Of a stretch of DNA of 64,000 nt, positions 21,852 to 44,372 are shown piece by piece. The notes below the pieces were generated by a model. That model was given only the letters and a program-made list of their open reading frames with translations, did not search any database and was not told where the DNA came from. Source of the stretch: Acidobacteriota bacterium (lineage in GTDB: Bacteria; Acidobacteriota; UBA6911); contig OY761556.1 in assembly GCA_963664705.1 (NCBI GenBank), positions 2,400,001 through 2,464,000 on the forward strand, read 5' to 3'. Each line of letters begins with the position of its first letter. Position 1 is the stretch's first letter. The position numbers were made by a program, and so were the translations under genes.

Positions 21852-22598
21852 ATGCGATTGATGATTAGCGTAGTGTCGGCAGTGGAGGCAGCCAGGGCAC
21901 GCAGCGGCGGAGCTTCGCTTCTGGATGTGAAGAATCCAGAGGAGGGGTCCCTGGGTGCCCAGTGCCCCGAGGTAATCCGCGAGATAAGGAATGTTGCGGG
22001 GGCAGGGGCCGATCTCAGTGTTGCAATTGGCGATATGCCCAACCTTCCTGGAACAGCAGCGCTGGCAGCGCTTGGCGCCGCCGCCTGCGGCGCGGACTAC
22101 ATTAAGGTCGGACTCCATGGCGTGCACAACTATATCGATGCGATCCGCCTTCTGCGCGGAATAAAGGAATCGGTCGTCGGATATAAAACAAAGGTCATTG
22201 CCGCCGCCTATGCGGACTATCGCAATATAGGATCCCTTGATCCGGGCTGCCTTCCGCTCGTTGCTGAGTCTGTGGGGGTCGATGGATACTTGATTGATAC
22301 GGCGGTCAAGGATGGAAGGACGCTGTTGGACTATTATTCAGCGGAGGATCTGGCAATCCTTGCCAACGAGGCGCATGCCCGGGGCCTTCTTTTTGGAGCG
22401 GCGGGAGCGCTTCGGAAAGAGCATCTGCCTCTGTTGCAGGCTGCGGGTGTCGATGTTGCCGGACTTCGCTCAGCAGTATGCAATAACGGCATCCGTACCG
22501 GCACGTTGGATTCCGGTCGCGTCCGCGAACTGATTCAGATGTATGGCGGCTTCTTTGCCGCCAGCTCCACGAATTTGCACAAAGCCGATCTAAGGTGA
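21852..22598 (+). CDS. mfnB: (5-formylfuran-3-yl)methyl phosphate synthase (DUF556, Orf22-like)
   Basis: DVKNPEEGSLGA, DYIKVG and IDTAVKDG motifs. Confidence 0.92.
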   Translation: MRLMISVVSAVEAARARSGGASLLDVKNPEEGSLGAQCPEVIREIRNVAGAGADLSVAIGDMPNLPGTAALAALGAAACGADYIKVGLHGVHNYIDAIRLLRGIKESVVGYKTKVIAAAYADYRNIGSLDPGCLPLVAESVGVDGYLIDTAVKDGRTLLDYYSAEDLAILANEAHARGLLFGAAGALRKEHLPLLQAAGVDVAGLRSAVCNNGIRTGTLDSGRVRELIQMYGGFFAASSTNLHKADLR

Positions 22599-23246
22599 AC
22601 TCGACGCTCGGATGTGCGTTCCCATCGTATGTCCTGTTCTCAGCAATTCCGTGAGACGGCCGGGTTGCATACCATTCACGATCCAGGCTTCAACACTGCT
22701 TTCGCCCAATGCCCGGGACAGGTATTCATCGACTCCTCCGCTATGCTCTTTCAACTGCGCGCACGTCATCTCCGCGATTATCCCGTTGGGATTCAATAGT
22801 CCGTCGACATCCTTGAGAAGGATCAGTCGGGCACAGCCGATGCGTGCGGCGATCCATGCCGCAATGGAATCAGAGGTTACATGCCATGAATGCGGCAGAG
22901 GATCTTCGCGCATCATGATTGTCGCGGGAAGAAGTATCGAGGTTTCGCCGGACATGGCTTTGGTGCAGGCAATGTCAAGATCATGGGTAAGACGGCAGTC
23001 CCTCATCAGATGATGCAGAACATAGCCGTATTGATCCATGGCCAGCAACGCCATGTTGTGAGCAGCCGTCTGCTCCAGATGATATCGGCGATCCGCTTTG
23101 CGCACCTGGTCGGCAAAATCTCCTCCACCGGGTATTACCAGCAGTGAGCGCTCTTTCCCCAATCGGTTTATCTCTTCGCAAAGGGTATTCAGTCCGTTCC
23201 CACGGCTAAGACTGCCCCCGACTTTGAGCACCGCGTCGAGATTCAT
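22590..23246 (-). CDS. mfnE: Amino-acid-kinase-fold furan phosphate kinase (MfnE/Orf21-like)
   Basis: VLKVGGSL, PGGGDFAD, SWHVTSDSIA and KDVDG motifs; start overlaps the upstream stop (ATGA). Confidence 0.82.
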   Translation of the reverse strand: MNLDAVLKVGGSLSRGNGLNTLCEEINRLGKERSLLVIPGGGDFADQVRKADRRYHLEQTAAHNMALLAMDQYGYVLHHLMRDCRLTHDLDIACTKAMSGETSILLPATIMMREDPLPHSWHVTSDSIAAWIAARIGCARLILLKDVDGLLNPNGIIAEMTCAQLKEHSGGVDEYLSRALGESSVEAWIVNGMQPGRLTELLRTGHTMGTHIRASSSP

Positions 23247-24286
23247 GCCAATTCCCTGCTCAGATGACGCGCCAGCAACTGCGCCACAGCAAGGCTGGGC
23301 GCAACCGCCGACTCCTTTTTTCCAAGATTGCCGGGGATTGTACCGATGTCCAATCCTGCCTTTTCGGCCGCCGCTTTGGCTAGAAAAGAACCGGCTCCCA
23401 AAACCACGACTGAATGCCTGCGCAATTGCGGCAGCCGGGCAACTACCTGCTCGATTCCTGTTTGAATCTGCCGCACCTGGCATGCGGCCAGATACCGGGC
23501 TATCCCATCAATCTGAGCGGCCTCAAGCGCCTCCATATCTGCACATACGAGACGCGCAATGCGTCTGCGCGCAGAATCGATCGAAACCGATTCGCTATCA
23601 GGTGTCGGGCAATGATACTCGTCGACTTGCAGATTTCCGAGAATCAGGTGGATATCGCCGCTAATCGCAAAATATTCCGAAGCCACCGGACAAAATCGGG
23701 CTGAAACCGGTACGGCCGGTGCAATCGCCGCCAGATTTGTTCGCAGTGCCCCGGTGTACACCAACTCTCCCGCAAGCAGTCGATCCAAATCCGTGCGTCC
23801 CAGGGCAGCCACACGCCCATCAATGATCGGCATTATGTCGGTGGTTGTGCTGCCGGTGTCGATCACCAGGCCGTCCGACATTTGCCGGGCCACCCATTGT
23901 GCCGTGGCCATCCAGTTCGAAGCAGCAAAATCAAGCGGGCGCAGGCCCGCATCCTCCAGCGAAACAAACTCTCCGGCGAGACTAAAAACAAAGGTCTTCA
24001 CTTCAGGAAATGCTGTCTTGAAGCAGCTTAGAACGTACAGGACACCTTCGCGCTTGGTCAGGAATGCATCGGACAGTTCAGCCGTCATGGTGATGGCGGC
24101 AGTGTGCGGATCTGCGGCGCCGCGAACCGCACCCCAAACCTCCAGCAATACCTTGGGCAAGTCCTGCTTATGGCGCCATATCTCAAATGCTTGCGATGCC
24201 ACAAACGCTTCATCGCCCAAAGCTTTCCCGCAATTCCATCGCGCCGCTTTTATATTGGCCGCCCCGATATCCCAACCAACGATCAT
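23243..24286 (-). CDS. mfnF: MfnF/Orf9-like hydantoinase-family protein (methanofuran core coupling)
   Basis: GWDIGAANIK, TMTAELSD, ASNW, DTGSTTTD, ELVYTG and RIARLVCAD motifs. Confidence 0.88.
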   Translation of the reverse strand: MIVGWDIGAANIKAARWNCGKALGDEAFVASQAFEIWRHKQDLPKVLLEVWGAVRGAADPHTAAITMTAELSDAFLTKREGVLYVLSCFKTAFPEVKTFVFSLAGEFVSLEDAGLRPLDFAASNWMATAQWVARQMSDGLVIDTGSTTTDIMPIIDGRVAALGRTDLDRLLAGELVYTGALRTNLAAIAPAVPVSARFCPVASEYFAISGDIHLILGNLQVDEYHCPTPDSESVSIDSARRRIARLVCADMEALEAAQIDGIARYLAACQVRQIQTGIEQVVARLPQLRRHSVVVLGAGSFLAKAAAEKAGLDIGTIPGNLGKKESAVAPSLAVAQLLARHLSRELA

Positions 24287-25377
24287 CCCTGCACCGCCAA
24301 ATTCCCCATAAGCCGATCGGAAAGCCCCCAGGTCCGAAAGTCATTTTTTAGAATAGTGACCTGTCCGGAAATCGGAATCTGCTCAGGCAGCATTCCGTGT
24401 AGACAAGCCTTAAAAATAGCCTCCGCAAGGTTCACCCGGCTTACCTGCCGCAAGCCGATATAGGAAGTCGTCAGCCTCGGATTGATTTCGATCAACTGTG
24501 CCACACCTTCAGTCAAAACAAGATCCACCCCCACATAGCCTTGCAATCCGGGAATGGATCGTACCGCGGAACAGGCCAATTCCGATACATCCCGGGCCAA
24601 TGGGCTTTGAAACGGAACCCGGCTTCCCATGTATTTTAGTTGTGAACCAGTTTCCATCAGCTGTTCATTGAGGCTTATCGCCATGCAATGATCGCGGGAA
24701 GCCAGAACGGATACACTGACGGAACGTCCGGCGACATAGGGCTGCAGCAGGAATTGATTGTGCGATGTGGACTGCCGAACCTGTCGCAGCGCCTTGTTGA
24801 TTTCGCTCCTGTCCTGAACACAACATACGCCATCGCTCCCCGCACCATCCAGCGGCTTGAGCACCAATGGAAAAGCAGACAGGTTGAAAATATCGGTGCC
24901 ACAATCAAAGGGGAGACATCGAGTTTGTGGAGAAGGAAGCTTCCTGTTCAAAAAAACATCGTGGCACAATGCTTTATTCCCGGTCAGCGCCGCAGCAGAA
25001 CTGCAGGAACCCAGAACCGGTATATCCTTATCTTCAGCCTGCTTTGTAAGTGCAGCCAGGATATTATCCGTCTCCGGTGCAATAATAAGCACGGCGTCAC
25101 ATAGTTCCAGTAATGTACCAAACCCATTGCAGGGGCAGTCCTCCGAAATGGAAATGACCTGATCGGCAGGCAGGGTGGTACGGTTGAGTCCGGGAATTCG
25201 ATCTTCAACGTGGGAATCCAGAGCAGCGATTGTCCGAACTTCTCCCCAGTGTTTGAAATCGGTCAGGAGCGCCCAAATCATGCCGAGCGCTTCGATTGCC
25301 AGATCGGCAGGAATATCCTTGCCGAGGCAACCGCCGCCGGTAAAGAATTCATAGACCAGAACTGTTGAGGAAGACAT
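24283..25377 (-). CDS. mfnD: ATP-grasp ligase, MfnD-like (tyramine/tyrosine-glutamate ligase)
   Basis: VYEFFTGGG, IAPE, KPLDGAGS, GYVGVDL and IEINPRLTTSY motifs; start could be 25377, 25386 or 25395. Confidence 0.78.
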   Translation of the reverse strand: MSSSTVLVYEFFTGGGCLGKDIPADLAIEALGMIWALLTDFKHWGEVRTIAALDSHVEDRIPGLNRTTLPADQVISISEDCPCNGFGTLLELCDAVLIIAPETDNILAALTKQAEDKDIPVLGSCSSAAALTGNKALCHDVFLNRKLPSPQTRCLPFDCGTDIFNLSAFPLVLKPLDGAGSDGVCCVQDRSEINKALRQVRQSTSHNQFLLQPYVAGRSVSVSVLASRDHCMAISLNEQLMETGSQLKYMGSRVPFQSPLARDVSELACSAVRSIPGLQGYVGVDLVLTEGVAQLIEINPRLTTSYIGLRQVSRVNLAEAIFKACLHGMLPEQIPISGQVTILKNDFRTWGLSDRLMGNLAVQG

Positions 25378-26155
25378 GCGAATCATACCCGTCATCGATC
25401 TATTAAACGGTTTTGCGGTTCACGCCATCAAGGGGGACCGAAAAAACTACCGGCCGCTTCACAGCATACTATGCAGCCAACCGGATCCTATCACAATCGC
25501 TCGATCTTTTCGGACCCAGCTCGGACTCAAGGAACTTTACCTGGCTGACCTGGATTGCATTCAGTACCGCGACAGCGCAAAGCATCGCCGGTTGATATCC
25601 AGCCTGGCGACAAACGAGTCCATGGATATTATCCTGGATGCAGGCGTTTCCGAGATTGAGGCCGCCATTGATTGGATAAACGCAGGAATCCACAAGATTG
25701 TCATCGGATCTGAGACGCTGCGGGCACTCAGCGTCATTGCGCAAATTCCGCAAACCCTCGACAAAAATCGCATTGTTTTCAGCCTTGATCTCCAGTCCGG
25801 CGCCATCCTGTCTCAATGCAGTGAATTCGCGGCCCTGTCCCCGATCGAAGCACTGGACCTGCTTCAATCGGCTGGATGGCAAGAGGTCATTCTGTTGGAT
25901 CTCACCCGTGTCGGCAGCGGGATGGGCATCGACCGGAATCTGGTTGCCGAGACACGACGAAGATTTCCGGAAATGAACCTGCTGGTTGGAGGCGGGATTG
26001 CCGGCCCTGAACAGATGTCGGAGCTTTGGGAATCAGGCGTTGCCGGGGTATTGCTGGCGACAGCGCTGCATAACGGAACCATTACAACCCAAAACATTTC
26101 CGCAATGCAGGAGCCGCAAAAAAAGAGGTGCCCCGCTTTCACCGCGGGGCACTGA
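25376..26155 (+). CDS. HisA/HisF-related TIM-barrel protein of H4MPT clusters (Orf17-like)
   Basis: MRIIPVIDL, AVHA..G.R..YRP, LYLADLD, LDLTRVGSGMG and GVLLATALH motifs. Confidence 0.85.
   Translation: MRIIPVIDLLNGFAVHAIKGDRKNYRPLHSILCSQPDPITIARSFRTQLGLKELYLADLDCIQYRDSAKHRRLISSLATNESMDIILDAGVSEIEAAIDWINAGIHKIVIGSETLRALSVIAQIPQTLDKNRIVFSLDLQSGAILSQCSEFAALSPIEALDLLQSAGWQEVILLDLTRVGSGMGIDRNLVAETRRRFPEMNLLVGGGIAGPEQMSELWESGVAGVLLATALHNGTITTQNISAMQEPQKKRCPAFTAGH
26118..26152 (-). terminator. Rho-independent terminator for fae, inside the 3' end of the opposite gene
   Basis: Perfect 9-bp stem GTGCCCCGC/GCGGGGCAC followed on the minus strand by CTC and seven T residues. Confidence 0.7.
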
Positions 26156-26185
26156 TATTGAGTCTCCCGATTATGGACTTCGGCT

Positions 26186-26698
26186 TTATTTATATGCCGC
26201 GAAGGGATGAGCCAGCTCACCTTTCTTCGCCTGAATTTCCGCAGCCTTCGGCTCCCCGGCAACAGCGCGCTGGATGGCAAGCTTCGTGGCTTCGTAATTG
26301 AACTTCTGGATCTTGGCATCGTCCTTCGCTTCCCAATGGATGAACACGCCAACCAGAACAAATATATCCTCGGCCTCTGCCGCCGGAATCGTTCCCTCTT
26401 CCACGCAATCGGCCACGGCCATTGCCACAGCCCGCTGTGCAGGCCCAAACATCTGCACCGCCTGCGTCGCATTCTTTATCGTCACTTTATTGAACATGAC
26501 GGTGGAAGGTTTGCATACGAGGTTCGGAGCTACTACGGCCAGCAATGCGGTAAACCCGTCTTTGTTGTTTGTGAGCGTATTGCAAAAAGCTGTTTCGGCA
26601 GCACTCCCGCGAGGTCCCATCAACAGATCGATATGAGCAACTTCATTTCCATCGCCGATCAGAGCTTCGCCTACCATCACACGATTTATTTTTGCCAT
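26186..26698 (-). CDS. fae: Formaldehyde-activating enzyme
   Basis: [29 protein letters not shown] and VFIHWEA motifs; AGGAGG ribosome-binding site. Confidence 0.97.
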
Positions 26699-26807: not shown

Positions 26808-27635
26808 TCATAAGATCTGGCATTGAGGACAATAGTAGATTGCGCCACCCAGGTACGCTTCCTTTTTTATTGGTCGTCCGCAGTCGGCACAGGGCTTGTT
26901 CACCGTTTTTTTGCTGAGGATTGTATGATACCCGCCCGACATACCATACAAATCCAATTCGGTATCTCGCCCTCCCTGGATCTCCATGGCGGCCAGGGTT
27001 GACTTAACCGATGCATATAAAGTGGCACGATCTTTCTCCGTAAGCGTCCGGGTCTTCCTCTTGGGATGCAATTTCGCATGGAACAGAATATCCTGCAACG
27101 TCCCATTCCCCAGCCCGGGAATTCTCTGCTCCGTCGCAAGCAAACCCTTGAGACTCAGGTTCCGGACATCGTCCGCAGCAGTGATTTTCTGAAAATAGGA
27201 TTCGCTGAACTTTGAAGCCAGGGGAGAGGGTTTTTCCTTGGCCACCTTATAGTACTTGTTTTCCAATTCCCCTCTTAGACAGCAACCCATGCCTCCGTAC
27301 ATCTGCACACAGGCGGTCAGCGCCGTATGATCGTCAAACTCGATAAGGAGTTGATGCTTCAGAGGGCGCGGTTCACCGGAGGGACAGAACCTGATCCCCA
27401 CTCCCTCACCCAGAAGGATGTCCGCCTCCCCTGCCCCTATCTCCACTAACCCGCCATACGCGATTGCTTTTCCAATTGTCTTTCCCATCAGCAAACGGCT
27501 ATAGCCATCCCGGTCGCCGTAGTACCACATCAACTTATGCGGGGTGTGACCGACCGTTACCCCCACAATCCGCTTCCCCTTGATCGTGGCGTTCAGTTGT
27601 TTGGAAATATTTGATGATTCCGGGAGTTCAATCAT
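26808..27635 (-). CDS. Fpg/Nei-family (endonuclease VIII-like) protein
   Basis: N-terminal MIELPE, H2TH motif IPGLGNG..QDILF and C-terminal CxxC...CxxCQ zinc finger. Confidence 0.85.
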   Translation of the reverse strand: MIELPESSNISKQLNATIKGKRIVGVTVGHTPHKLMWYYGDRDGYSRLLMGKTIGKAIAYGGLVEIGAGEADILLGEGVGIRFCPSGEPRPLKHQLLIEFDDHTALTACVQMYGGMGCCLRGELENKYYKVAKEKPSPLASKFSESYFQKITAADDVRNLSLKGLLATEQRIPGLGNGTLQDILFHAKLHPKRKTRTLTEKDRATLYASVKSTLAAMEIQGGRDTELDLYGMSGGYHTILSKKTVNKPCADCGRPIKKEAYLGGAIYYCPQCQIL

Positions 27636-27644: not shown

Positions 27645-28541
27645 TCAAGTAACAATTCGCGTCAAACCCGAACCGGCAATGCCCGGCCCAAATCTCCAAT
27701 ACCGATCCAGCAGCACAAGAAAGACGACGGCAGTGGTCAAATCCGCCGTGGTCCCAGGATTCAGAGTATGGCCGGGATCCCGCAACGACCGGTCCAGATC
27801 TTTTATTGCCGACTCGCCCTCCGGCGAAAAAACGCCGCCCCGATCCAGTGCCGCCGCCGCCCTGCAGGAAACGCCTTGCGCCGTCTCCCCATCTTTCTTC
27901 CTAAAAATCAGCGTATCCGGAACACGACTCAGGATGGTAAGGTAGCACTGCACGACTGCACGGGAGAACTCCGCGCCGCGTGCCAATGCCGCCTGCAGCG
28001 CGGGATATCCAATTTCAAAGGATATCTCAAAATCGCTGGAATACTCTCTAGCAATGGAATCCCTTTCCCGCGCCAGTTGCATGGCCTGCAGCAGCGTTAT
28101 GGATGGCTGCGCCGCAATATCGGCAGTCTCCACCCGGCCCATGCCGCCCGGCTTTGCCATGCGAATGGCTTTGTAGGCAAAAACCGCATCCTCCACGCTT
28201 AATTCCTGAAGTACCGTATGGAGCTTTTCGCGAACTTCACCCAGGGAACGCGCGCATTGGCATGATTTCACTAATGGCGCAAGCAAAAGGATGATTCCAA
28301 GGTTGGTATTTGAACTTACCATGCGGTGAGTGGCGTCAACTGCCTGCAGGATGATTTCACCCACTCGGAGGGCTTCTGCTTTATCCAGGGCGGATCCGAT
28401 AGCGATAGCGCTCAGCAGAAAATCACTCATGGTCGCATCACAAAAATCCTGTTCTCGCGACACATTGCCCGGCTTTGAGGAACAAACATCCCATATGCAG
28501 GCCATCTGGGCAAGTTGAGCAATTTCTCCGGGCGTTTTCAT
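27645..28541 (-). CDS. CitG-like protein of H4MPT clusters (Orf7-like)
   Basis: KPGNV, NTNLGIILLLAP, PDTLI.RK and NPGTTADL motifs. Confidence 0.88.
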   Translation of the reverse strand: MKTPGEIAQLAQMACIWDVCSSKPGNVSREQDFCDATMSDFLLSAIAIGSALDKAEALRVGEIILQAVDATHRMVSSNTNLGIILLLAPLVKSCQCARSLGEVREKLHTVLQELSVEDAVFAYKAIRMAKPGGMGRVETADIAAQPSITLLQAMQLARERDSIAREYSSDFEISFEIGYPALQAALARGAEFSRAVVQCYLTILSRVPDTLIFRKKDGETAQGVSCRAAAALDRGGVFSPEGESAIKDLDRSLRDPGHTLNPGTTADLTTAVVFLVLLDRYWRFGPGIAGSGLTRIVT

Positions 28542-28545: not shown

Positions 28546-29412
28546 TCAGGATTCCAGCACATGATCGACAATGGCTTCGGCAATCTGCAATTCAGTGGTC
28601 TTTTGCAAACCGCGCCAGCCGGGAATGCTGTTTATTTCAATGACGTAAGTCGTTCCGTTCTCCGCAGGCATCAGATCTACGCCAGCGTAGTCCAATCCGA
28701 CAAGACGAGCCGCATCTACAGCCAGAGCCTTCATCTGTTCATCCAAATCAATAGGCTCAGCCGACGCACCCTGTGAAAAATTGGTTTTCCATCCTTTGCC
28801 GCGGCGCCGCATCGCCGCAATCACCCTCTCGCCCACAACAAAGGCACGTATATCCTCCTGCCGATGCGGCAGATATTCCTGAATATAGAAAATATAGCGA
28901 TTCAGTTCCCACGAACGCAGCACACGATAAGCGGTATCTTCATCGCAAATCCGGACCATTCCTTTGCCCTCGGATCCAAACAAGGGTTTGACAATGACAT
29001 CCCCTAATTCGCGACAAGCCTGCATTGCCGTTTCAAAATCTTCCGTTACCAGAGTCCGCGGCGTCTGGATTCCCGCGTCCGCAAGGAGGAAAGACGTGTA
29101 ATACTTATCCACGGTTTTCTCAATCGCGGATGCCGGGTTCACGACACGAACGCCCAACCGCTGCAATCGGTGGAAGGCATCCATTCGGAAGACGATCTGT
29201 TCCAGAGACCCGGTGGGAATGGTCCGAACAAACAACGCACGGCAATCGTCCAGCCGTTGGCCGCGAACATGAAGTGCCGGAGCGCCGTCGATCCAGCCGG
29301 CCATTCGAGTGATCGGGAAAAAAACAGGTTCGCAATTATGGTGGCGCACGGCCGCTTCCAGCGCCTGAACATGATAGCCCCTCTGGGAGGAGAGAATTCC
29401 TATCTTGTCCAT
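28546..29412 (-). CDS. RimK-family alpha-glutamate ligase (Orf5/MyfA/MptN-like)
   Basis: GSLEQIVFR, DKYYT, KPLFGSEGKG, DIRAFV, WKTN and EINSIPG motifs; follows mch as in methylotroph clusters. Confidence 0.88.
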   Translation of the reverse strand: MDKIGILSSQRGYHVQALEAAVRHHNCEPVFFPITRMAGWIDGAPALHVRGQRLDDCRALFVRTIPTGSLEQIVFRMDAFHRLQRLGVRVVNPASAIEKTVDKYYTSFLLADAGIQTPRTLVTEDFETAMQACRELGDVIVKPLFGSEGKGMVRICDEDTAYRVLRSWELNRYIFYIQEYLPHRQEDIRAFVVGERVIAAMRRRGKGWKTNFSQGASAEPIDLDEQMKALAVDAARLVGLDYAGVDLMPAENGTTYVIEINSIPGWRGLQKTTELQIAEAIVDHVLES

Positions 29413-35025: not shown

Positions 35026-35409
35026 CTATGACTCCATTATCCCGGACCCGGGCTTCTGTTCCTGATTTTTGGGAACAGCTCTTGTAATCTCGATCTCCAC
35101 GTGTTTTGAATCGGGCATTCCTGACGCGTAGGTTTCACCGCCAACCAATCGGTTGCACGCCGGACCGAATGCAATGAACGCCATCCCCGGGGGTATATCG
35201 GCAGCACGGCATATGACTTCCGCCGATCCATACTCCGTGGTTATCCGAACGGCATCTCCCTCAGCCAATCCTGACCTCTCCAGATCAACAGTATTCACAT
35301 CCAGGATGCGGGTAGCCTCTTGATAATCCAGGTATTCCTTACCGCTCGAAATTCCAGCACCCTGCTTGGTGGACCTGCCGGTAACCAACATCAGCTTAAG
35401 CGTTGCCAT
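35026..35409 (-). CDS. fwdD: Formylmethanofuran dehydrogenase subunit D (molybdopterin-dinucleotide-binding domain)
   Basis: TGRSTKQG, G.AFI.FGP..N and GMPDSK motifs; directly upstream of fwdB. Confidence 0.85.
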   Translation of the reverse strand: MATLKLMLVTGRSTKQGAGISSGKEYLDYQEATRILDVNTVDLERSGLAEGDAVRITTEYGSAEVICRAADIPPGMAFIAFGPACNRLVGGETYASGMPDSKHVEIEITRAVPKNQEQKPGSGIMES

Positions 35410-36793: not shown

Positions 36794-37651
36794 ATGAAGA
36801 AGATACTTATCCAACTCGACAGTGACCGTGTGCCCAGCGTATTTGACGCCGTAACGGCTTACGATGCGGGAGCGGATCGATTGCTTCAACATGGTGGAAT
36901 CGTTCCCACTGAAGTGCGCGACCTCGTTTACGGAGCCATGTTCACGCGCGGACCTTCGGATTTGAAAAACACCGCTGTATTCATCGGGGGAATCAGCGTT
37001 GCAAAAGGAGAGGCCATTCTCAAGGAAACCCTGGCAGCATTCTTCAACCCCTTGAGAGTCTCGGTAATGCTTGACTCCAACGGCTGCAACACAACGGCCA
37101 CGGCCGCGGTGGTCAAAGTCATTTCCGCAGTCCCGGTCCGCGGACAAAAAGTGGTTGTGCTGGCGGGAACCGGACCCGTAGGCCAAAGGGTTGCCGCCCT
37201 CCTCGCCAAAGAGGGAGCCGAAGTCACACTCACATCACGCACTTTTGAGCGAGCCAAAACCGCTTGCGATGCTTTGAAAGAGCGATTTGGGTCGAATGCA
37301 ATTCCGGCAGCCGCGGCCGACTTCGCGGCCACAGCAGCGGTACTTGAAGATGCATGCGCCGCCATCTGCACCGGAGTGGAAGGGGTCATGCTCATTCCGG
37401 AAGATGTCTGGAAAAAGCACCCGACGCTGCAGGTCCTGGCAGACGTCAATGCAGTCCCTCCCCTTGGAATCGAGGGAACGCAATCTCATTGGGACGGTCA
37501 GCAGGTCAATGACAAGCGGATATTCGGTGCCATTGGAATCGGCGGCCTCAAAATGAAAGTCCACAAGAGATGTATTGCACGGCTTTTTGAGCGCAATGAC
37601 CTGGTATTGGACGCAGAGGAGATAATGGTCATCGCCAAGGAATTGGCCTGA
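36794..37651 (+). CDS. mtd: NAD(P)-dependent methylene-H4MPT dehydrogenase (MtdA/MtdC-like)
   Basis: PSVFD, FTRG, MLDSNGCNTTA, AGTGPVG, DVNAVPPLGI and IGGLKMKVH motifs. Confidence 0.93.
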   Translation: MKKILIQLDSDRVPSVFDAVTAYDAGADRLLQHGGIVPTEVRDLVYGAMFTRGPSDLKNTAVFIGGISVAKGEAILKETLAAFFNPLRVSVMLDSNGCNTTATAAVVKVISAVPVRGQKVVVLAGTGPVGQRVAALLAKEGAEVTLTSRTFERAKTACDALKERFGSNAIPAAAADFAATAAVLEDACAAICTGVEGVMLIPEDVWKKHPTLQVLADVNAVPPLGIEGTQSHWDGQQVNDKRIFGAIGIGGLKMKVHKRCIARLFERNDLVLDAEEIMVIAKELA

Positions 37652-37673: not shown

Positions 37674-38696
37674 TCAAAGGAGGAGGGTGCTGCGGGACAC
37701 GAAGGCTTCGGATTTTTGAATCTTCACCTGAGCGCCCCTGTTTCGGGGCTGTACGCAGAGAACCTGTCCTTCGCCGCAGGTTTGGAGAAAGTCCTTCACC
37801 TGCTGAGTCAGTTTTCGTGCGGACGCTCGCCCCTGGACCAGGCCATAAACAGCGGGTCCCCAGGAACTCTGCCCTGCTCCGACCGCTCCGTTCGCCAGCA
37901 GAAAGTCGATTATCTTTTCGGATAGAGGATTCGAATATCGCCCCCCCTGAACGGCGGCAAAACAATCTCCTATCATCTGCTGTATGATCGTCATCGCCTT
38001 TCCGAAACCATCGATATCTTTTTCAACAAGCGCGGGCAGCATTTTCATCAGAAGCAGATGACTGACTTTTCCCACCAGATCCGGGTTTGCCTCCGGCAAA
38101 TGCGAAAAAGCGCTGCATTCCCTTTCACCGCTGATACCTTGCCCGGTGCCCGGAATACATACAATGAAAAACCAGTCTTTCGGCACCGCACGGTGAAACA
38201 GGATAGGAGGGACATGCTTTCCTGCCTGCCGGGTTGCCCTCGCGGAATCAACGGGCTCGGGGATTCGGTGCCCACCATCCAGAACGAAACCGCCATGTTG
38301 GAAGGTTGCAATCCCTATGCCCGATCTCATGCCCCTTCCGGCATCCAGTGCAATCTCCTCGACGCTCAACGGCAAACCCGCCAGATGAGCCAGTGCCGTC
38401 CCAACCGCAAGCGCTATCTGGGTCCCCGAACCCAGGCCGACGTGCGCGGGGATTCCCGAGATCAGTTGAAGGCGCGCTCCGGCAGGAATCCCATATTTTT
38501 CCACGAAGCGGACGGCGTAAGTTTTTACGCGGTCCGATTCCGCACCCTCGATTATCAGGTCATCCGCCGATTCGGCCTTTAGCCGCAGCTGCGGATGATC
38601 CACCGCCACACCAATGCTGCCATACAGCCGGCCACACTCCCCATTGTGATCCAGCAAACCCAGATGAAGGCGCGCACAGGTTCTGACCTCAATCAT
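37674..38696 (-). CDS. mptG: Beta-ribofuranosylaminobenzene 5'-phosphate synthase
   Basis: RLHLGLLD, HVGLGSGTQ, GRGMRSGIG, GGFVLDGG and GQSSWGP motifs. Confidence 0.93.
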   Translation of the reverse strand: MIEVRTCARLHLGLLDHNGECGRLYGSIGVAVDHPQLRLKAESADDLIIEGAESDRVKTYAVRFVEKYGIPAGARLQLISGIPAHVGLGSGTQIALAVGTALAHLAGLPLSVEEIALDAGRGMRSGIGIATFQHGGFVLDGGHRIPEPVDSARATRQAGKHVPPILFHRAVPKDWFFIVCIPGTGQGISGERECSAFSHLPEANPDLVGKVSHLLLMKMLPALVEKDIDGFGKAMTIIQQMIGDCFAAVQGGRYSNPLSEKIIDFLLANGAVGAGQSSWGPAVYGLVQGRASARKLTQQVKDFLQTCGEGQVLCVQPRNRGAQVKIQKSEAFVSRSTLLL

Positions 38697-39244
38697 TACG
38701 CTCCCTTTCGAACAAAGTCTTGTACCATCTGTAAGGCTTGTTTATCGATCGCATCCCCGGTTTTTTCTACGATCTCCCCATACTGCATCAGCTTTTCTTC
38801 CACCCAAAGCGGTTCGTAGAACATCCGTCGCGTGGCCACGATGGTCGCTTCCAGCACGGCATTGCTGCCGCGACGAAACCCAAGGAATTCCTTCTGCCGG
38901 CCCTCGTAGAGCACCCTGCATTGGATATTGGCTCGCACATCGTCCCCTGAATCGGAAATCACCTCCATTTCCCGCCAGGAACAAGTTTCGCTGAACACGA
39001 CACACGGGCTCGCCTTCCCCGGGAAATGAGGAAGCACTGCATCATATAGCGCACTCCGGACATACGCCAGAATATCATCGCTTATGTTTGCTACTCCATA
39101 CCTGGTAGAGAGAAGGTTCCGACAGGTATGGCTGTCACGGAATGGCCTCACGACGACAATGTTCCGGTCCCACACCACTCCCATAGGTGCGAAGTTGGGT
39201 TTCCCGCTCTCATCCAGAGTGGAGAAAATCGTCTCAACAATCAT
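38696..39244 (-). CDS. DUF447 family protein (Orf19-like)
   Basis: MIVETIFST, NFAPMG and AVLEATIVATR motifs; translationally coupled to mptG. Confidence 0.85.
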   Translation of the reverse strand: MIVETIFSTLDESGKPNFAPMGVVWDRNIVVVRPFRDSHTCRNLLSTRYGVANISDDILAYVRSALYDAVLPHFPGKASPCVVFSETCSWREMEVISDSGDDVRANIQCRVLYEGRQKEFLGFRRGSNAVLEATIVATRRMFYEPLWVEEKLMQYGEIVEKTGDAIDKQALQMVQDFVRKGA

Positions 39245-39317: not shown

Positions 39318-41216
39318 TCACTGAACCACAGACAAAACCCGATAGGAATGCGGCTTGATCTGCAGCGGGAATTGCAGCCTGTTGCCGCCCCCTTGCCCGA
39401 ACCCAAACCAGGCAGGAGCAGAGTTCTTGGGCGGCGTCTGAGGGGAAAACTCCTCGCCACTGACGATATCCCTCAGCCGGGGAAATTTCGGATCGAGCGA
39501 GATTCTGATATCCACGCTATCGGGAAGGAAGGACTCCACGATAAACGTATTATTGTCATACATGAACAGACTGACATCCCCCGGGCTTTCAATACGGACA
39601 AAGGAGTCCCGCAACAATACATTTCGGATTTGAGTTAGAACAGGAGCAGGAAAACTATACAGGTCGCTGAAGTTTTCCGGAACCGTCAAAACATAGAGCT
39701 GCCCTTTTGAGTATCCAGCCTGGATCAGCAGCGGATAGCCCAGATCATTCTGCGTCATGCCGCTGACCAGTTCCCATGCATCGTTAGTGAGATACTGCAG
39801 TTCCGGTATGATGATGTGGAGATCAGGCGAGACCGCGCTTTGCCCTCTGAAACTCTTTATAATCGCCTTTCTATCTGTCACGCGAATTTCCGCAATATCC
39901 TCGATACCCCTCCCCTGGAGAGCCCGCAGAAGGCCGGAGGTGATGACCACAGACTTCCCATCTACCAATTGTTTTTTGATTTTCACAACGACAGAAGGAT
40001 CCGCCGCCGCACTTTCGGTAAGCAGTACCATCGCGGCTTCGCTTGGGAACTCCGGCACGAGGTCGATTGGAATGCCCACCATGCCGAGGTAGGTCTGAAG
40101 GAAATCCTCGCCGGTGGAATGATAGGGGCGATAGCTTTTGAGACCAACCGGTTTCCCCAGCTTGCCCAGGAAGGTATCCGCCTGTTCAAAGGCAACGCCG
40201 GCCGCGCGGGCGATGGTCGTGGGCTTGATGGAGCTTCCATCCTGCTGTTTGATCGGCTCCATCATCCGGTCAAAATCGAAGCTTGTTTGCTGCCCCTGCC
40301 ACGGTCCACGGTCTGCCGGCCGAAGCTGCCGCTGCAGTTGGGCAAAATCGAACAGTGTAACTTCCGGCGTTTTGGCAAAAAGTGTCAGCCAGAGCTGCTC
40401 TGCATAGCGGTCCAGAAACCGGCTTGCCGCGGTATCGACCCAGCCACCGCCATTCCCGCCGGGCTTTAAATTCTCAAAGTACCGAAAAATGGAGTATCCC
40501 AGGTACTCCTGCAGATGCTGATCGCCGGTTCGATCCCGTGTTTCTGTTCCGGTATAGATCCCATCAAATAGCTTTGGCTCGGTTTCCAGGTTGAAACCAA
40601 GTCCCTGAAAGTGCTCATACCAATTGGGATACTTAATGACCAGCTTTACTTTCGGATTCACAGCCTTGGCCGGCTTGACCACAAGCTCACGGGCTGCTTC
40701 ATCCATCAAGGCCAGCCGAAACTGGGTCCAGCTTCGGGTTCCCTTGGCACGAATACAGGCATCGCATTTGCAGTTCGTAAAGAAGAAATCGTCAAAAATG
40801 ATCTCGTCAAAAAGGCCGGCCGTAAATTCCACTACCTGCTTCAAGTGCTTCCGATGTTCCGGGTTGGTATAACAGAATGTCTCAAAACGGTTCATCTCGT
40901 TCACAGTGGCTGTGATTCCACCTGCCACCGTAACCCCGCGATCCTGAAAAAAGCGTTTCAGCTTGAGAATAGTATCCTTCCCCGCCACCTTCATGTCCCG
41001 GTGAGTTTCCAGATATATCTTGTCTACCTTTACCTGCCGCGCAATCTCATTCCAGCGAGGCTCGAGCCACGAGAGGTCGTCCATGCGAAGCACTTCATAG
41101 ACGCGGGCGTAAACAGACACCTTAAAGTTGTTGTAATGATCTGCAGCACCGGCTGCATAGGGAATCAGTGAGCATGCGAAAACAACCAGCAATCGAAGAG
41201 CAAGAGAACGTTTCAT
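39318..41216 (-). CDS. Secreted hypothetical protein, possibly a glycoside-hydrolase-like TIM barrel
   Basis: Signal peptide, DDFFFTNCKCDAC motif and 632 aa length; the fold call is inference. Confidence 0.55.
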   Translation of the reverse strand: MKRSLALRLLVVFACSLIPYAAGAADHYNNFKVSVYARVYEVLRMDDLSWLEPRWNEIARQVKVDKIYLETHRDMKVAGKDTILKLKRFFQDRGVTVAGGITATVNEMNRFETFCYTNPEHRKHLKQVVEFTAGLFDEIIFDDFFFTNCKCDACIRAKGTRSWTQFRLALMDEAARELVVKPAKAVNPKVKLVIKYPNWYEHFQGLGFNLETEPKLFDGIYTGTETRDRTGDQHLQEYLGYSIFRYFENLKPGGNGGGWVDTAASRFLDRYAEQLWLTLFAKTPEVTLFDFAQLQRQLRPADRGPWQGQQTSFDFDRMMEPIKQQDGSSIKPTTIARAAGVAFEQADTFLGKLGKPVGLKSYRPYHSTGEDFLQTYLGMVGIPIDLVPEFPSEAAMVLLTESAAADPSVVVKIKKQLVDGKSVVITSGLLRALQGRGIEDIAEIRVTDRKAIIKSFRGQSAVSPDLHIIIPELQYLTNDAWELVSGMTQNDLGYPLLIQAGYSKGQLYVLTVPENFSDLYSFPAPVLTQIRNVLLRDSFVRIESPGDVSLFMYDNNTFIVESFLPDSVDIRISLDPKFPRLRDIVSGEEFSPQTPPKNSAPAWFGFGQGGGNRLQFPLQIKPHSYRVLSVVQ

Positions 41217-41288: not shown

Positions 41289-41813
41289 TTACCAACCCAT
41301 CCGTTTTTTTAGTTCGGTAATGTGCGCCGTGTGATGCCTGCCGTGCCAGGCCATCATCGGCAACAGCGTATCCAGCGTCATCAACCCTCGCTCAGGGTGG
41401 ATAAGCTTCCGGGACCAATCTGCAGGCTGCAGCGATTCAAACATCTGCGTCCAGCGTCCATGGAGACCATCGAGCAGCGCAAGCGAATGCAGGACCGGAG
41501 ATGTGCGCGCATCAGACAATTCGGCCCAGAGGGCCTCATCGAAAGGTTTGATGATCGGCTCATTTTCCGTCAATCCAAGCTTTGTACGCACATACCAGTT
41601 CATATGAGAATCAGCCAAGTGATGAACAACCTGGCGCACAGTCCATCCCTCCGGACGATACACCGTATCCAGTTGGCTGTCGGCAAGGCCCTGCACAGCC
41701 AGGCGCAGCAGATTCGGCAACTCTCCTATCTGCCGCATGCAGAGAATCCGCTCCGCTGGTGTTGTTGTGGAAGCTGCCTGGTATTGTCCAATCGGGTATC
41801 GCAAATCAGACAT
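41289..41813 (-). CDS. YfiT/BstA-family (DinB) putative thiol S-transferase
   Basis: DLRYPIG, YRPEGWTVRQVVHHLADSH and WHGRHH motifs. Confidence 0.9.
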   Translation of the reverse strand: MSDLRYPIGQYQAASTTTPAERILCMRQIGELPNLLRLAVQGLADSQLDTVYRPEGWTVRQVVHHLADSHMNWYVRTKLGLTENEPIIKPFDEALWAELSDARTSPVLHSLALLDGLHGRWTQMFESLQPADWSRKLIHPERGLMTLDTLLPMMAWHGRHHTAHITELKKRMGW

Positions 41814-41848
41814 CGTCTCCTCCATTACTCAACGGAAAACATGGAATT

Positions 41849-43198
41849 CTAGTCCGCCTTCGGTGTTCTCCGCGTTTTCAAATCTTTCGACAGATAACCC
41901 CAGCGCAGTTCCTCTTCCTGCGCATATGTCTTTCCCAGTTTTATGGCAATCGATGCTTTCTGGAGTTCCCTGCCCAGGTAAAAGGCATGGGCTCCATCCA
42001 CCTCTCCCAACTCTCTGAAAATGGAGTCAATCTCAATCCCTTTTACAAACAGCTCTCGATTGAAAACATAAATGAACTCGCGATCAGTGAATATACGAAA
42101 GTGGCGGTCCTTGATGTTCGACTGCATTGAACGCAGTTCATCCTCTCGAAAGCTCTCAAAAGACGGATCCTTAACCGTAAGTAATCCATCGTTCAAGTGC
42201 TTGGGCAGAACGCGGTTCATTTGAGCATAGTGCATCAGACGCCGGGCATGATCCAGCTCACACACTGCTCCGCGCGCCCAATGCCCGACTTCCGTCGTCA
42301 GCACATAATCAATACCCAGTTCTGCAACGATACCCGCGATCAGAGCATTCATTCCGGTTGTGTCGGCATCCGTCAATTCGGTGATATTCCCGGCACCCAG
42401 GAGCATTTCGGATTTCGGATATTTCCGCCGGATGGAAGCAAAGCTTTCAATGGATTCGGTAAAACCGAAACAAACCGGCTTCAAAATCGGGTCAATGATG
42501 TATGGAACGCGCCAGGATTCCAGCTTTGCGATATTGGCCGACAGCGATTCCAGCTCGCTCGCTTCGTCCGGAATAACAACCACCTTGCAGTGCAGATGGC
42601 GCGCGACATCAATATTCCTCGAGTTAACGCTCAAAACAAAATCCACGCCGGCGCGATCGGCACTCAGGATATCGTCCGGATTGAAGGAATCGATGCTGAC
42701 AGCATAGCCTGCCTGCTTCAAAGCCCGCACCGTTATCTCGATTTCGGGGAAAGAGCCGCTGACCGGGCATCCCAGGTCGATAATGTCCGCGCCGCTCGCC
42801 CGGTAATAGCTCGCGCGATTTAGAATCTCCTCCAGGGTCATGCGATGCGCATCCACAATTTCAGCCAGGATCTTCGCATGATATTCGCCGTAGCCCTCCA
42901 GTCTTTGGGAGGCGCCAAAATAGCCTGGGATATCCTTCAGGCTTTTGGGGCCCCGGATGACCTCCGCACCGGTCTTCTGCTCAACCAGAGCCAGATCCCC
43001 CTCGCAGGAACCGGGAATCATGATCCTGTCGCATCCGTTGCTTCCGCTTATATGTTTTGAGATGAAACGGGTATCCATGAGCGCGGCCACCGAAATCGGC
43101 ATGACAGACACATCGTATTCAAGGGCTTGTATCCCCTGCAAACAGTCGCGCAAAGACTGTTCTGCCAGTTTTCCCGTTATAAACAGGTACCGAGGCAT
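41849..43198 (-). CDS. Dihydropteroate-synthase-related protein of H4MPT clusters (Orf20-like)
   Basis: FITGKLA, ISVAALM, AEIVDA, GADIIDLG, GNITELTDAD, HAFYLG.EL and YAQEEEL.WG motifs. Confidence 0.88.
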   Translation of the reverse strand: MPRYLFITGKLAEQSLRDCLQGIQALEYDVSVMPISVAALMDTRFISKHISGSNGCDRIMIPGSCEGDLALVEQKTGAEVIRGPKSLKDIPGYFGASQRLEGYGEYHAKILAEIVDAHRMTLEEILNRASYYRASGADIIDLGCPVSGSFPEIEITVRALKQAGYAVSIDSFNPDDILSADRAGVDFVLSVNSRNIDVARHLHCKVVVIPDEASELESLSANIAKLESWRVPYIIDPILKPVCFGFTESIESFASIRRKYPKSEMLLGAGNITELTDADTTGMNALIAGIVAELGIDYVLTTEVGHWARGAVCELDHARRLMHYAQMNRVLPKHLNDGLLTVKDPSFESFREDELRSMQSNIKDRHFRIFTDREFIYVFNRELFVKGIEIDSIFRELGEVDGAHAFYLGRELQKASIAIKLGKTYAQEEELRWGYLSKDLKTRRTPKAD

Positions 43199-43331
43199 TT
43201 GGCTCCCCCTGCCATATCTAACTAATGTACCCGTTTGGCCATGATTTACATATTGAAAAGGAGGCCTCGTCGGCGTTTTGCTGTGATGGAATGATAGCGA
43301 ATGAGCGGAGGATTGAAGGAATCTCTGTCGG

Positions 43332-44372
43332 CTAGCCTGGCCGTGTTTTGATCATTGTATCCAGTGGGGAGTTACCCAGCAACAATCGGTAATGAATCCG
43401 GCCTTTGCTGTTCTCGAGCCTTTCGACGGTGCCGGTGGCGACTACAGCGTCGCCAATACAGGCCTGTTCGCAGAACCTGCCGCGAAATGAGACGATTTCA
43501 TCAATAGGGATTTCCGGGCCGTCCAGAATCTTGACGCCGGACACCCCATATCTGCAGGGAGTAAATATTGCATCCTGATCGTCAACTATACTGGCTTCAA
43601 TGGTAGCGCGCCCCATGGCCGAATATCGTATTTCTCCATAGTTTTCCTGGATCTCTTGAGGATCTTTGAGAAAACGGATGAAATAGGGGCGCGCACGAAA
43701 GCTGCCTTGACAGATCTTGTTTCTCTCGGATGCCACAAAGTCATCAAACGCCATCTGCGTATCCGGAGTGCGCTGCTCGTATAGCTCCGCAACACCAGCC
43801 GCGTCGAGCCGATTCCATTCCGGATCAGATCCCGACTGCAAAATGGATTGCAGAGCCTGATACACTTTTTGGCTGTTTTGCAGCCCAAAAACGGAGATAT
43901 CCAGGTCAGAGGAATCCCTATGCATGTCGATAAGAATCGATCCCGAAATTCCAATCGCGGAGGACGGAACACCGGATCTTGTCTGAAGTGACTTAATGAA
44001 ATCGGCAGCATCGGTCAAAACCGGATGAGATTGTTGCTCAGAGCATAATTCGACGGCGCGTGTGCGCGGATCATACACTCGCCCAATCAGGGTTCGGGGC
44101 ACGCTCTGCAGAGTGGTCTGAAAAACCGGATCGTGTTTGAGGTAATGCGGAAATTGCGACCGAAGCAGCTGTTCCTGTTCCGGGAAATGATAGAGCCGCC
44201 GATAAGCCATCCCGGATCTTACCCTGCTTCCATGATCCGCGTCCGGCACATAGCGAACGACGCCAATCACACGATCCGGAGGATGTACCAATCCTTTTAC
44301 GGCAAAGAAGAGACCTTCCCGCGTTTCCAGATAAAAGCTCTCAATAATGCCAAGTGCAGCAAGAGCATCCAC
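43332..44372 (-). CDS. Archaeal-type (COG1665-like) nucleotidyltransferase-domain protein
   Basis: F.VKG..HPPDR...RY N-terminus and Pol-beta motif GISGS-x10-DLD; GTG start. Confidence 0.72.
   Translation of the reverse strand: MDALAALGIIESFYLETREGLFFAVKGLVHPPDRVIGVVRYVPDADHGSRVRSGMAYRRLYHFPEQEQLLRSQFPHYLKHDPVFQTTLQSVPRTLIGRVYDPRTRAVELCSEQQSHPVLTDAADFIKSLQTRSGVPSSAIGISGSILIDMHRDSSDLDISVFGLQNSQKVYQALQSILQSGSDPEWNRLDAAGVAELYEQRTPDTQMAFDDFVASERNKICQGSFRARPYFIRFLKDPQEIQENYGEIRYSAMGRATIEASIVDDQDAIFTPCRYGVSGVKILDGPEIPIDEIVSFRGRFCEQACIGDAVVATGTVERLENSKGRIHYRLLLGNSPLDTMIKTRPG

Follow-up and report, generated by a model that had tools for sequence, protein, structure and literature searches.

A methanopterin- and methanofuran-linked one-carbon gene cluster in an Acidobacteriota genome of family UBA6911, with a probable role in formaldehyde oxidation

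The window analysed here is a stretch of 64,000 nucleotides from an Acidobacteriota genome (GCA_963664705.1, contig OY761556.1, positions 2,400,001 to 2,464,000 of the forward strand). It carries a gene cluster at positions 21852-44372 that, judging from its profile matches, encodes all the enzymes of the tetrahydromethanopterin (H4MPT)/methanofuran one-carbon route and most of those for the synthesis of the cofactors. The gene content suggests that this route oxidises free formaldehyde to CO2, and we place the probability of this reading, route and direction together, at roughly two in three (0.68). The cluster is a real and inherited pathway that had been reported before: according to the available part of Yadav et al. 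(2021; 10.1101/2021.04.09.439258), several genomes of the genus UBA6911 oxidise formaldehyde via the H4MPT pathway to formate, the upstream genes being 'surprisingly' missing and the value of the machinery unclear. Thus, H4MPT genes in this lineage are already known. An earlier note on this DNA, made from the sequence alone, had presented the lineage as one not usually credited with the route and had agreed to give this up if the lineage proved to be known for the cluster; on the available part of that report, it was. What the present analysis adds is a predicted redox-type FwdB, an apparent mosaic origin (a core that groups with Chloroflexota and a Fae that groups with Betaproteobacteria), a candidate feed, and leads from a linked nucleotidyltransferase and from putative selenocysteine fwdB genes in related genomes.

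The 62 open reading frames (ORFs) of the window were scanned with NCBIfam and Pfam profiles, applying the curated NCBIfam cut-offs. Every gene named in the earlier note was found within 21852-44372, so that its description of about 22 kb holding fae, mtd, mch, ftr, fwdABCD, mptG, Orf and mfn genes and two extra ATP-grasp ligases agrees with the profile scans. The products of fae, mch, ftr, fwdA, fwdB (521 bits) and fwdC, the MptG-family RFA-P synthase (TIGR00144) and the MfnF/Orf9 family protein (TIGR03123) score above the cut-offs. The assignments of fwdD, mtd (Mpt_N), mfnB, mfnE, mfnD, Orf17 (HisA-like), Orf7 (CitG), Orf19 (DUF447), Orf20 (DUF6513/DHPS-like) and the ATP-grasp ligases Orf5/MyfB and OrfY/MyfA rest on Pfam or on NCBIfam matches below cut-off. 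The labels Orf7, Orf19 and Orf20 are used as we take them to apply. The Orf naming otherwise follows the available part of PMC8141765, and the name Orf1 follows PMC5020050. The genes of the route and of cofactor synthesis are:

21852-22598, plus strand: mfnB (Orf22), furan ring synthase for methanofuran (PF04476, E 8e-66; NF002575, 224 bits, under cut-off)
22590-23246, minus strand: mfnE (Orf21), kinase (NF040622, E 9e-37; PF00696; start taken from a codon model)
23243-24286, minus strand: mfnF (Orf9) (TIGR03123, 321 bits, over cut-off; NF040623)
24283-25395, minus strand: mfnD-like ATP-grasp ligase (Orf1) (NF040722, E 4e-32; PF02655 and PF18301)
25376-26155, plus strand: Orf17, HisA/HisF-like (TIGR00734, E 4e-37)
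26186-26698, minus strand: fae, formaldehyde-activating enzyme, proteobacterial type (TIGR03126, 255 bits; 1Y5Y, E 2e-80)
27645-28541, minus strand: Orf7, CitG-family triphosphoribosyl transferase (PF01874, E 1e-73)
28546-29412, minus strand: Orf5/MyfB, MptN/RimK-like glutamate ligase (NF040720, 292 bits; TIGR00768; name from the available part of PMC8141765)
29419-30381, minus strand: mch, methenyl-H4MPT cyclohydrolase (TIGR03120, 409 bits)
30368-31177, minus strand: fwdC (TIGR03122, 263 bits)
31174-32073, minus strand: ftr, formyl-methanofuran:H4MPT formyltransferase (TIGR03119, 428 bits)
32111-33733, minus strand: fwdA, amidohydrolase subunit (TIGR03121, 779 bits)
33727-35016, minus strand: fwdB, tungsten/molybdenum (W/Mo)-pterin subunit with N-terminal cysteine cluster and C-H-G-P ligand motif (405-413 bits to archaeal FwdB)
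35026-35409, minus strand: fwdD, molybdopterin-dinucleotide binding subunit (NF042908, E 6e-21; PF01568)
35396-36589, minus strand: OrfY/MyfA-like ATP-grasp ligase (PF02655)
36794-37651, plus strand: mtd, MtdA-like methylene-H4MPT dehydrogenase, inverted (MtdA 6TGE/1LU9, E 8e-80)
37674-38696, minus strand: mptG, RFA-P synthase (TIGR00144, 228 bits; NF040726, 246 bits)
38696-39244, minus strand: Orf19 (DUF447) (PF04289)
41849-43198, minus strand: Orf20, dihydropteroate-synthase-like (DUF6513) (TIGR00284, 218 bits; PF20123)

All the reading frames of the cluster are open and intact, and mch, ftr, fae, fwdABCD and mtd occur as one copy each in the genome. Fae, Mtd, Mch and Ftr are thus all present, as in the bacterial H4MPT/methanofuran formaldehyde-oxidation module, and profiles for mer, mtr, mcr and methanol or amine dehydrogenases found no match among the 62 window ORFs, as the earlier note had said. 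Cofactor synthesis is covered by the cluster genes and by an Afp/DmrX-like (dihydromethanopterin reductase-like) gene outside the cluster at C1:870827, which lies under both profile cut-offs and whose counterpart adjoins orf20 in several genomes of the same genus (congeners); a FolE2-type MptA gave no match in the genome search. The Orf17 homologue of M. extorquens is required for methylofuran synthesis (available part of PMC8141765), and the OrfY/MyfA-like ligase is 32% identical to an Azoarcus gene equally placed between mtd and mch. The cluster resembles the methylotroph formaldehyde module, and it is neither an Fhc system nor a methanogenesis or Wood-Ljungdahl branch.

The terminal enzyme sets this cluster apart from the Fhc systems. 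FwdB scores 405-413 bits to the archaeal FwdB structures (5T5I, 8RJA) versus 58 bits to M. extorquens FhcB (6S6Y), it keeps the N-terminal iron-sulfur cysteines and the Cys-His-Gly-Pro ligand motif, and fwdA, fwdC and fwdD accompany it, as in Fwd/Fmd enzymes; the degenerate B subunit lacking the metal ligand and the missing D subunit that define Fhc are not seen here. FwdB is thus predicted to be a W/Mo dehydrogenase subunit, and CO2, not formate, would therefore be what the route ends in. In the proposed route, Fae would condense formaldehyde with H4MPT, the MtdA-like enzyme would oxidise methylene-H4MPT to methenyl-H4MPT, probably with NADP+, and Mch and Ftr would transfer the formyl group to methanofuran. 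FwdA would then release formate, which FwdBD would oxidise to CO2, passing low-potential electrons probably to free ferredoxin. Six small two-cluster ferredoxins were found by a motif scan.

We infer the oxidative direction from what the genome holds and lacks. In this 98% complete, single-contig genome, neither CdhC/acetyl-CoA synthase (ACS; PF03598) nor the Mer family (PF00296) had any match, no Hps exceeded its cut-off, and Mtr and Mcr had no match in the 62 window ORFs, so that the Mer and acetyl-CoA synthase expected of the archaeal H4MPT Wood-Ljungdahl pathway or methanogenesis are lacking. Oxidation is favoured because no consumer of reduced one-carbon units was found (ACS, Mer, Hps) and Fae has been retained. 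Formaldehyde oxidation to CO2, which the earlier note had also proposed, is therefore the best reading, given the retention of Fae, the redox-type FwdB and the lack of any reductive sink found. Electron sinks for the oxidation appear to be available, namely a heme-copper oxidase in this genome and dsrA in congeners, where it occurs in 10/20 fae-positive versus 0/9 fae-negative genomes.

Several observations weigh against this reading. Fwd can work both ways, and methanogens use it to reduce CO2, so that sequence alone leaves the direction unfixed. As to the use of the electrons, rnfD was not found in the genome, and no FwdF/G-like polyferredoxin to relay them was seen in the cluster or in a genome motif scan, no profile search having been run for it. 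In addition, the congeners are kin and several are incomplete, so that co-occurrence counts overstate; median genome size is 3.4 Mb in fae-negative versus 4.65 Mb in fae-positive congeners.

The host genome measures 6.89 Mb, with a contamination estimate of 6.18%. The best Mch matches among species genomes belong to Acidobacteriota in 8 of 9 cases, including UBA6911. TopA is 79% and 81% identical to that of the genomes behind loci L014 (UBA6911) and L017 (JAFGTD), two genomes of family UBA6911, versus 38-59% to two other Acidobacteriota and 53% to a Chloroflexia genome; JAFGTD is named as a family-UBA6911 genome in the available part of Yadav et al. (2021; 10.1101/2021.04.09.439258). These comparisons bear out the acidobacterial host suggested in the earlier note, with a well-supported placement in the family UBA6911 and a likely one in the genus UBA6911. 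The note had also called the host anaerobic. An unusually large set of 23 genes of the aldehyde:ferredoxin oxidoreductase (AOR) family and the corrinoid systems described below fit this view, but subunit I of a heme-copper oxidase (E 1.9e-145) is encoded as well, along with another, longer protein of that family. Since it encodes an oxygen reductase, strict anaerobiosis does not follow, and the host is better called facultative. SelA and SelB are present, and dsrA was not found in the genome.

Distribution was counted over 29 congeners, several of them incomplete, and 21 other genomes of the family. The mch gene occurs in 22/29 congeners and in 0/21 other family genomes, fwdB in 22/29 and fae in 20/29 congeners. 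The fae-positive congeners carry fwdB in 20/20 and mch in 19/20 cases. Congener clusters keep the gene order at 42-91% identity with varied passenger genes inserted, and in two of them (G439 and G440) the cluster adjoins the same housekeeping genes. Composition is host-like, with 53.8% GC in the cluster against 53.2% in the genome and a third-position GC of 0.593 against 0.604, and no boundary repeats flank it. The cluster is old in the genus, as its mch is spread over the congeners, its order is conserved and its composition is that of the host, and none of the marks of a recently acquired island (an unusual composition, repeats at the boundaries, a lack of the genes in close relatives) was found; the word 'island' in the earlier note is therefore not supported. 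Some congener loci depart from this pattern and look like stages of change: a lone mch in G426 (L109-L110), a cluster lacking mch and fae in G444 whose FwdB has Gln in place of the motif His (L125), and, in G442 (L126), a divergent fwdDBAC operon that adjoins the genes of an NADH-linked iron-sulfur complex.

A 53-row Mch tree, which has no methanogen or planctomycete rows and no true root, places the window Mch in an 11-row Acidobacteriota clade with UBA6911 (support 100/100), nested in a 24-row clade with Chloroflexota, Actinomycetota and Desulfosporosinus (99/97). The Mch proteins of other Acidobacteriota lie apart in this tree, and a single clade of all Acidobacteriota Mch was rejected by the approximately unbiased test (p-AU 0.00013; a 28-row subset under a simpler model, the test having been set after the first tree). 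When the phylum was sampled evenly, mch was found in 15/401 genomes, 12 of these in four other families. By this sequence evidence the phylum holds several separate mch acquisitions or losses. The donor of the core is not fixed, because the trees have neither methanogen nor planctomycete rows and no true root. Loci of other Acidobacteriota families with mch (L001, L002, L005, L007-L010, L058, L080, L085) fall in clades apart, one family having it in 4/4 sampled genomes. Gemmatimonadales and deltaproteobacterial loci (L049, L075, L078) carry a redox-type fwdDBAC set, and L075 has a second, more divergent one.

Fae has another affinity. It is 79% identical to the Paraburkholderia and 73% to the Azoarcus enzyme and groups with both at 100/100, in a tree with these two proteobacterial rows only, and the other 12 proteins with a match in those betaproteobacterial loci are 26-42% identical. 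In none of the five Chloroflexota and Actinomycetota genomes whose core is nearest does a fae exceed the cut-off, and two of these incomplete metagenome-assembled genomes (MAGs) have weaker Fae-like genes. Because of these three observations, the formaldehyde-capturing enzyme was apparently added to the core from elsewhere; among congeners it is the most conserved cluster protein (85-91%). Three points weaken the case for a clean import: the order orf7-fae is shared with those Betaproteobacteria, which could alternatively be ancient, the tree has just the two proteobacterial rows, and the five comparison genomes that lack fae are MAGs with gaps in them. The Mtd of the window genome and of three congeners, inverted in all of them, groups with a Thermoleophilia enzyme (100/100; 75% identity), apart from the Mtd of other congeners (42-46% identity to most). 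In G439 (L101) and G434 (L107) an iron-containing alcohol dehydrogenase lies just upstream of fae on the opposite strand, accompanied in G439 by an aldehyde dehydrogenase; no homologue of this alcohol dehydrogenase was found in the window genome.

Methylene-tetrahydrofolate exchanges with free formaldehyde. The likeliest internal source of formaldehyde may be the expanded corrinoid demethylase system of the genus, a proposal that we hold tentatively and at less than even odds. A methyl ether would yield methyl-corrinoid, then methyl-tetrahydrofolate and, through MetVF (present in the genome), methylene-tetrahydrofolate in exchange with free formaldehyde, and the H4MPT route would act as an overflow and detoxifying sink. 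The genome contains 24 UroD-family genes, 13 of which form a scattered paralogue group of 411-461 aa whose nearest solved structure is CdmB (E 9e-39). According to the available parts of the sources, the CdmB clade includes the MtoB/MtvB/OdmB O-demethylases (PMC13222342) and MtoB proteins measure 47-48 kDa (PMC8630106). The genome has three AcsV-like activators, and two operons unite UroD-family methyltransferases with an AcsE-like methyltransferase and a corrinoid protein:

C1:4331726-4334591 and C1:1149038-1162972 (L128): corrinoid methyltransferase operons

Outside the window, the genome thus holds a complete gene set for a three-component corrinoid O-demethylase (first and second methyltransferase, corrinoid protein and activator), with predicted substrates. 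The 411-461 aa group occurs in 29/29 congeners (2-18 matches each) versus 1/21 other family genomes, with a median of 11 copies in fae-positive versus 5 in fae-negative congeners (2.42 versus 1.58 per Mb). A separate locus (C1:3064251-3072369, L095) carries two MtaA/CmuA-like methyltransferases, a corrinoid protein, an AcsV-like activator, a hydantoinase-like gene and a DUF1638 gene, and directly adjoins selB and selA.

Other feeds were rejected: the MttB and pyrroloquinoline quinone (PQQ) types, since neither MttB nor a PQQ dehydrogenase-length protein had a match in the genome (NAD-linked methanol and amine dehydrogenases were not searched genome-wide), and the reverse ribulose-monophosphate pathway, since no Hps exceeded its cut-off. 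Against the corrinoid feed itself stand the ATP-yielding folate route given by Fhs and FolD, which needs no H4MPT, the presence of the methyltransferase group in congeners lacking the pathway, and the lack of any methyltransferase gene that regularly adjoins the cluster. CdmB, moreover, acts on haloalkanes, not aromatics (available part of PMC13222342), and close orthologues of the AcsE-like gene at C1:1152 kb occur in 6/20 fae-positive but 8/9 fae-negative congeners; as this gene does not track the pathway, its operon was rejected as pathway-linked.

The main alternative source is formaldehyde from neighbouring organisms. Formaldehyde that is solely external, microbial or abiotic, as suggested in the available part of Yadav et al. 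(2021), would leave chemistry and direction unchanged and is a variant of the main reading; it is possible, though we find it somewhat less probable than the corrinoid feed. It accords with the lack of a PQQ alcohol dehydrogenase and of MttB, with a GcvT family represented by a single gene within a glycine-cleavage locus, and with a cluster neighbourhood in which no feeding enzyme is conserved. However, some 20 genes and a metalloenzyme would seem costly for scavenging alone, and within the genus the pathway goes along with a higher number of methyltransferase copies.

The reverse direction, which the earlier note had left as an alternative, would have Fwd reduce CO2 with AOR-derived ferredoxin and would make methylene-H4MPT an electron sink or a one-carbon supply. 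The FwdB is of the CO2-reducing archaeal type, AOR-family genes are numerous (23), ACS occurs in 7/29 congeners, and a Wood-Ljungdahl electron sink was proposed for the genus in the available part of Yadav et al. (2021; 10.1101/2021.04.09.439258). Nevertheless, we consider it unlikely, because ACS and Mer were not found in the host and Fhs and FolD (the latter named by inspection) already supply one-carbon units. ACS does not track the pathway either (5/20 fae-positive versus 2/9 fae-negative congeners), and an imported Fae would not be needed.

Archaeoglobus-like methoxydotrophy is still less likely. Here the second methyltransferase would load the methyl group onto H4MPT, MetVF would replace Mer, and free formaldehyde would be a side issue. 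The methyltransferase expansion and the H4MPT cluster are indeed confined to the same genus, and A. fulgidus and M. shengliensis have been proposed to pass aryl-methyl groups to H4MPT (available parts of PMC8359953 and PMC8630106). However, both second methyltransferases found are AcsE-like (folate type) rather than MtrH/MtoA-like, the MtrH family itself not having been searched, Mer has no match in the genome, and the strong retention of Fae would be left unexplained. That the cluster is decaying, silent or an assembly chimera is highly improbable: mch is missing from 7/29 congeners, G426 has kept a lone mch and the contamination estimate is 6.18%, but all frames are intact in the window, order is conserved across congeners at 42-91% identity, G439 and G440 share the housekeeping neighbours and the composition is host-like. 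A single contig of run X1 covers window positions 19775-49000 with zero differences, although X1 may be the source sample and is thus not independent; from runs X5 and X6, short fragments at most were obtained.

On the minus strand the genes follow in the order nucleotidyltransferase, orf20, yfiT, glycosyl hydrolase, orf19, mptG, [mtd, inverted], orfY, fwdD, fwdB, fwdA, ftr, fwdC, mch, orf5, orf7, fpg, fae, [orf17], mfnD, mfnF, mfnE, [mfnB] and then AOR. Four genes of the span have no one-carbon link or no known role, namely the nucleotidyltransferase and three probable passengers, listed here with the flanking AOR gene:

26808-27635, minus strand: Fpg/Nei-like DNA glycosylase, passenger (PF06831; NF002211 under cut-off)
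39318-41216, minus strand: probable secreted glycosyl hydrolase, passenger (Atlas feature score 0.99 to GH_cat/SSO3021 clusters)
41289-41825, minus strand: YfiT/DinB-family thiol transferase, passenger or detoxification gene (NF009807, 230 bits)
43332-44372, minus strand: archaeal-type Pol-beta nucleotidyltransferase with C-terminal OB fold, candidate cofactor-biosynthesis enzyme (motif, model, PF01909)
19871-21757, minus strand: tungsten AOR, flanking gene (1AOR, E 1.5e-112)

No Fpg/Nei-like gene was seen in congener clusters. Among the congener regions displayed, the glycosyl hydrolase has the same placement in one, and an AOR orthologue at 76-78% identity adjoins the cluster in four.

The linked nucleotidyltransferase (346 aa) belongs to a mostly archaeal family. 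Its Pol-beta motif (G141/G144/S145/D156/D158) is invariant in 90 homologues, 76 of which match PF01909, and its model (pLDDT 93.7) shows a nucleotidyltransferase domain (Z about 7) and a C-terminal OB fold (Z up to 9). It has no Foldseek match at E <= 0.001, no sequence relative in the PDB and no NCBIfam family, and literature searches on the family label and methanopterin biosynthesis gave no paper on it. The gene is found in 18/29 congeners versus 0/21 other family genomes, i.e., in 17/20 fae-positive and 1/9 fae-negative congeners, the exception having mch and fwdB. Of 80 Mch loci, 11 also include it (in Actinomycetota, Chloroflexota and one spirochaete), often next to orf20, DmrX or HPPK-FolE2, and it is fused to HPPK in 4/120 homologues; no long fusion was seen among proteins of 675-2000 aa, which is weak evidence. 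Some role in pterin cofactor synthesis therefore seems probable.

CitG-family enzymes make triphosphoribosyl adducts, which partners with a nucleotidyltransferase fold transfer. On this ground Orf7 and the nucleotidyltransferase could build the ribose-phosphate-hydroxyglutarate tail of H4MPT, which would make the latter a missing enzyme of its biosynthesis, although we regard this more specific role as doubtful. OB folds usually bind nucleic acids, and the gene was not found in 12 mch-positive genomes of other acidobacterial families, both of which weigh against it, nor in Desulfosporosinus lacus or in a Hadarchaeota, a Gemmatimonadales and a deltaproteobacterial genome. The dephospho-H4MPT of M. 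extorquens has no such tail (available part of PMC8141765). If the proposal is true, the enzyme would fill an unassigned step of H4MPT synthesis (the terminal phosphodiester), these bacteria would make full rather than dephospho H4MPT, and a cofactor-tailoring step would be open to in vitro test. A 47-residue match to its C-terminus (E 4e-6), possibly a remnant, lies inside an NC10 H4MPT cluster (L141, G456).

The redox subunit deserves a separate comment. In 5/29 congeners, six fwdB copies have one in-frame TGA, located at the ligand cysteine, in separate fwdD-fwdB-fwdC operons:

L119-L124: TGA-containing fwdD-fwdB-fwdC operons of G445, G443, G441, G428 and G434 (twice)

Each of these five genomes carries selB, although in one the match is partial. 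The equivalent position is cysteine in the window's own FwdB and in 100/113 full-length homologues, and 7/120 hits are FwdB halves that begin just after it. A conserved hairpin with an AGUU loop 25 nt after the UGA fits the bacterial selenocysteine insertion sequence model (PMC13188914). However, the 63 nt that follow the TGA show no folding advantage over shuffled sequences (6/6); such an advantage is seen only for the 18-nt hairpin, which was chosen afterwards. These genes are likely to encode a bacterial selenocysteine FwdB, a selenoprotein held in databases as split fragments; the available parts of two reviews cite it from methanogenic archaea only. Two congeners without fwdBD in the cluster keep such a separate operon, and the redox step thus appears to be under selection in congeners. 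The idea that these two had decayed to an Fhc-like hydrolase was rejected, as fwdB is carried elsewhere in their genomes.

What bacteria that perform neither methanogenesis nor methylotrophy do with H4MPT/methanofuran genes is an open question: PMC5020050, where Acidobacteria are unlisted, calls their role enigmatic, and the available part of Yadav et al. (2021) leaves it equally open for this genus. The present genome makes the question testable through an argument on direction (an imported Fae and no reductive sink) and a specific candidate feed. Its redox-type terminal enzyme could conserve energy from one-carbon oxidation in sediments, soils and digesters. All these elements could be joined in a wider scenario, improbable as a whole. 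The genus UBA6911 would comprise overlooked anaerobic-to-microoxic degraders of methyl ethers, e.g., of lignin-derived aromatics, with up to 18 corrinoid methyltransferase paralogues and a mosaic one-carbon-to-CO2 pathway (proteobacterial Fae, Chloroflexota-type tungsten Fwd and, in some species, selenocysteine FwdB), in which the nucleotidyltransferase would act after Orf7 to give full rather than dephospho H4MPT.

Elsewhere in the window, an operon of an FAD-oxidoreductase, a CCG iron-sulfur protein and a second FAD-oxidoreductase (15501-19772) has a paralogue at C1:6676747-6681197; it was rejected as a part of the system in view of this paralogue, and among the regions displayed it flanks the cluster in at least one congener. 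An inverted repeat of 7-bp tandem units lies between two convergent genes (19774-19861), and further contigs from the same run carry the unit as well, so this repeat may be dispersed. At 12615-13718 there is a gene for a UshA-like (seleno)protein with a cytochrome c554 domain, whose profile match begins at position 77, so that a stop codon may separate it from a further part upstream. A nucleotide-kinase/dCMP-deaminase fusion resembling anti-phage dCTP deaminase (55518-56516) and a small HNH nuclease (58004-58543) are both under the NCBIfam cut-offs.

With respect to known systems, the Fwd of methanogens and anaerobic methanotrophic archaea, FwdABCD(FG) (5T5I, 8RJA, 7BKB), shares the cluster cysteines and ligand motif of the B subunit and the A, C and D subunits, whereas here no FwdF/G-like protein, Mer or ACS was found and the partner Fae is of proteobacterial type. 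The Mto/Mtv/Odm/Cdm systems likewise combine a UroD-family first methyltransferase, a corrinoid protein, a second methyltransferase and an AcsV-like activator; here the second methyltransferase is AcsE-like rather than MtoA-like, there is no ACS to take the methyl group, and the substrates are predicted. Methylotrophic Proteobacteria (Methylorubrum extorquens, Paraburkholderia, Azoarcus) have Fae (73-79% identical), Mtd, Mch, Ftr and Orf5/7/9/17/19/20/21/22/Y in a similar order. The window cluster differs from theirs in having a redox FwdB and FwdD in place of the degenerate FhcB, an MtdA-like rather than MtdB-like Mtd, no PQQ dehydrogenase and an extra nucleotidyltransferase, and most of the proteins are just 26-42% identical. 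The H4MPT clusters of Anaerolineae, Chloroflexia and Thermoleophilia MAGs have the nearest Mch outside the genus (99/97), keep fwdD and place the nucleotidyltransferase beside Orf20 or DmrX, but no fae over cut-off was found in 5/5 Chloroflexota/Actinomycetota genomes tested, and several carry DUF1464 and HPPK-FolE2 genes absent from the window cluster. The closest comparison is the genus UBA6911 of Yadav et al. (2021), with the same lineage and pathway in the available part of the report and, in the JAFGTD locus L017, the same gene order at 42-85% identity; the route described there ends at formate, with no upstream genes found, whereas the present genome carries a predicted redox FwdABCD and a candidate feed.

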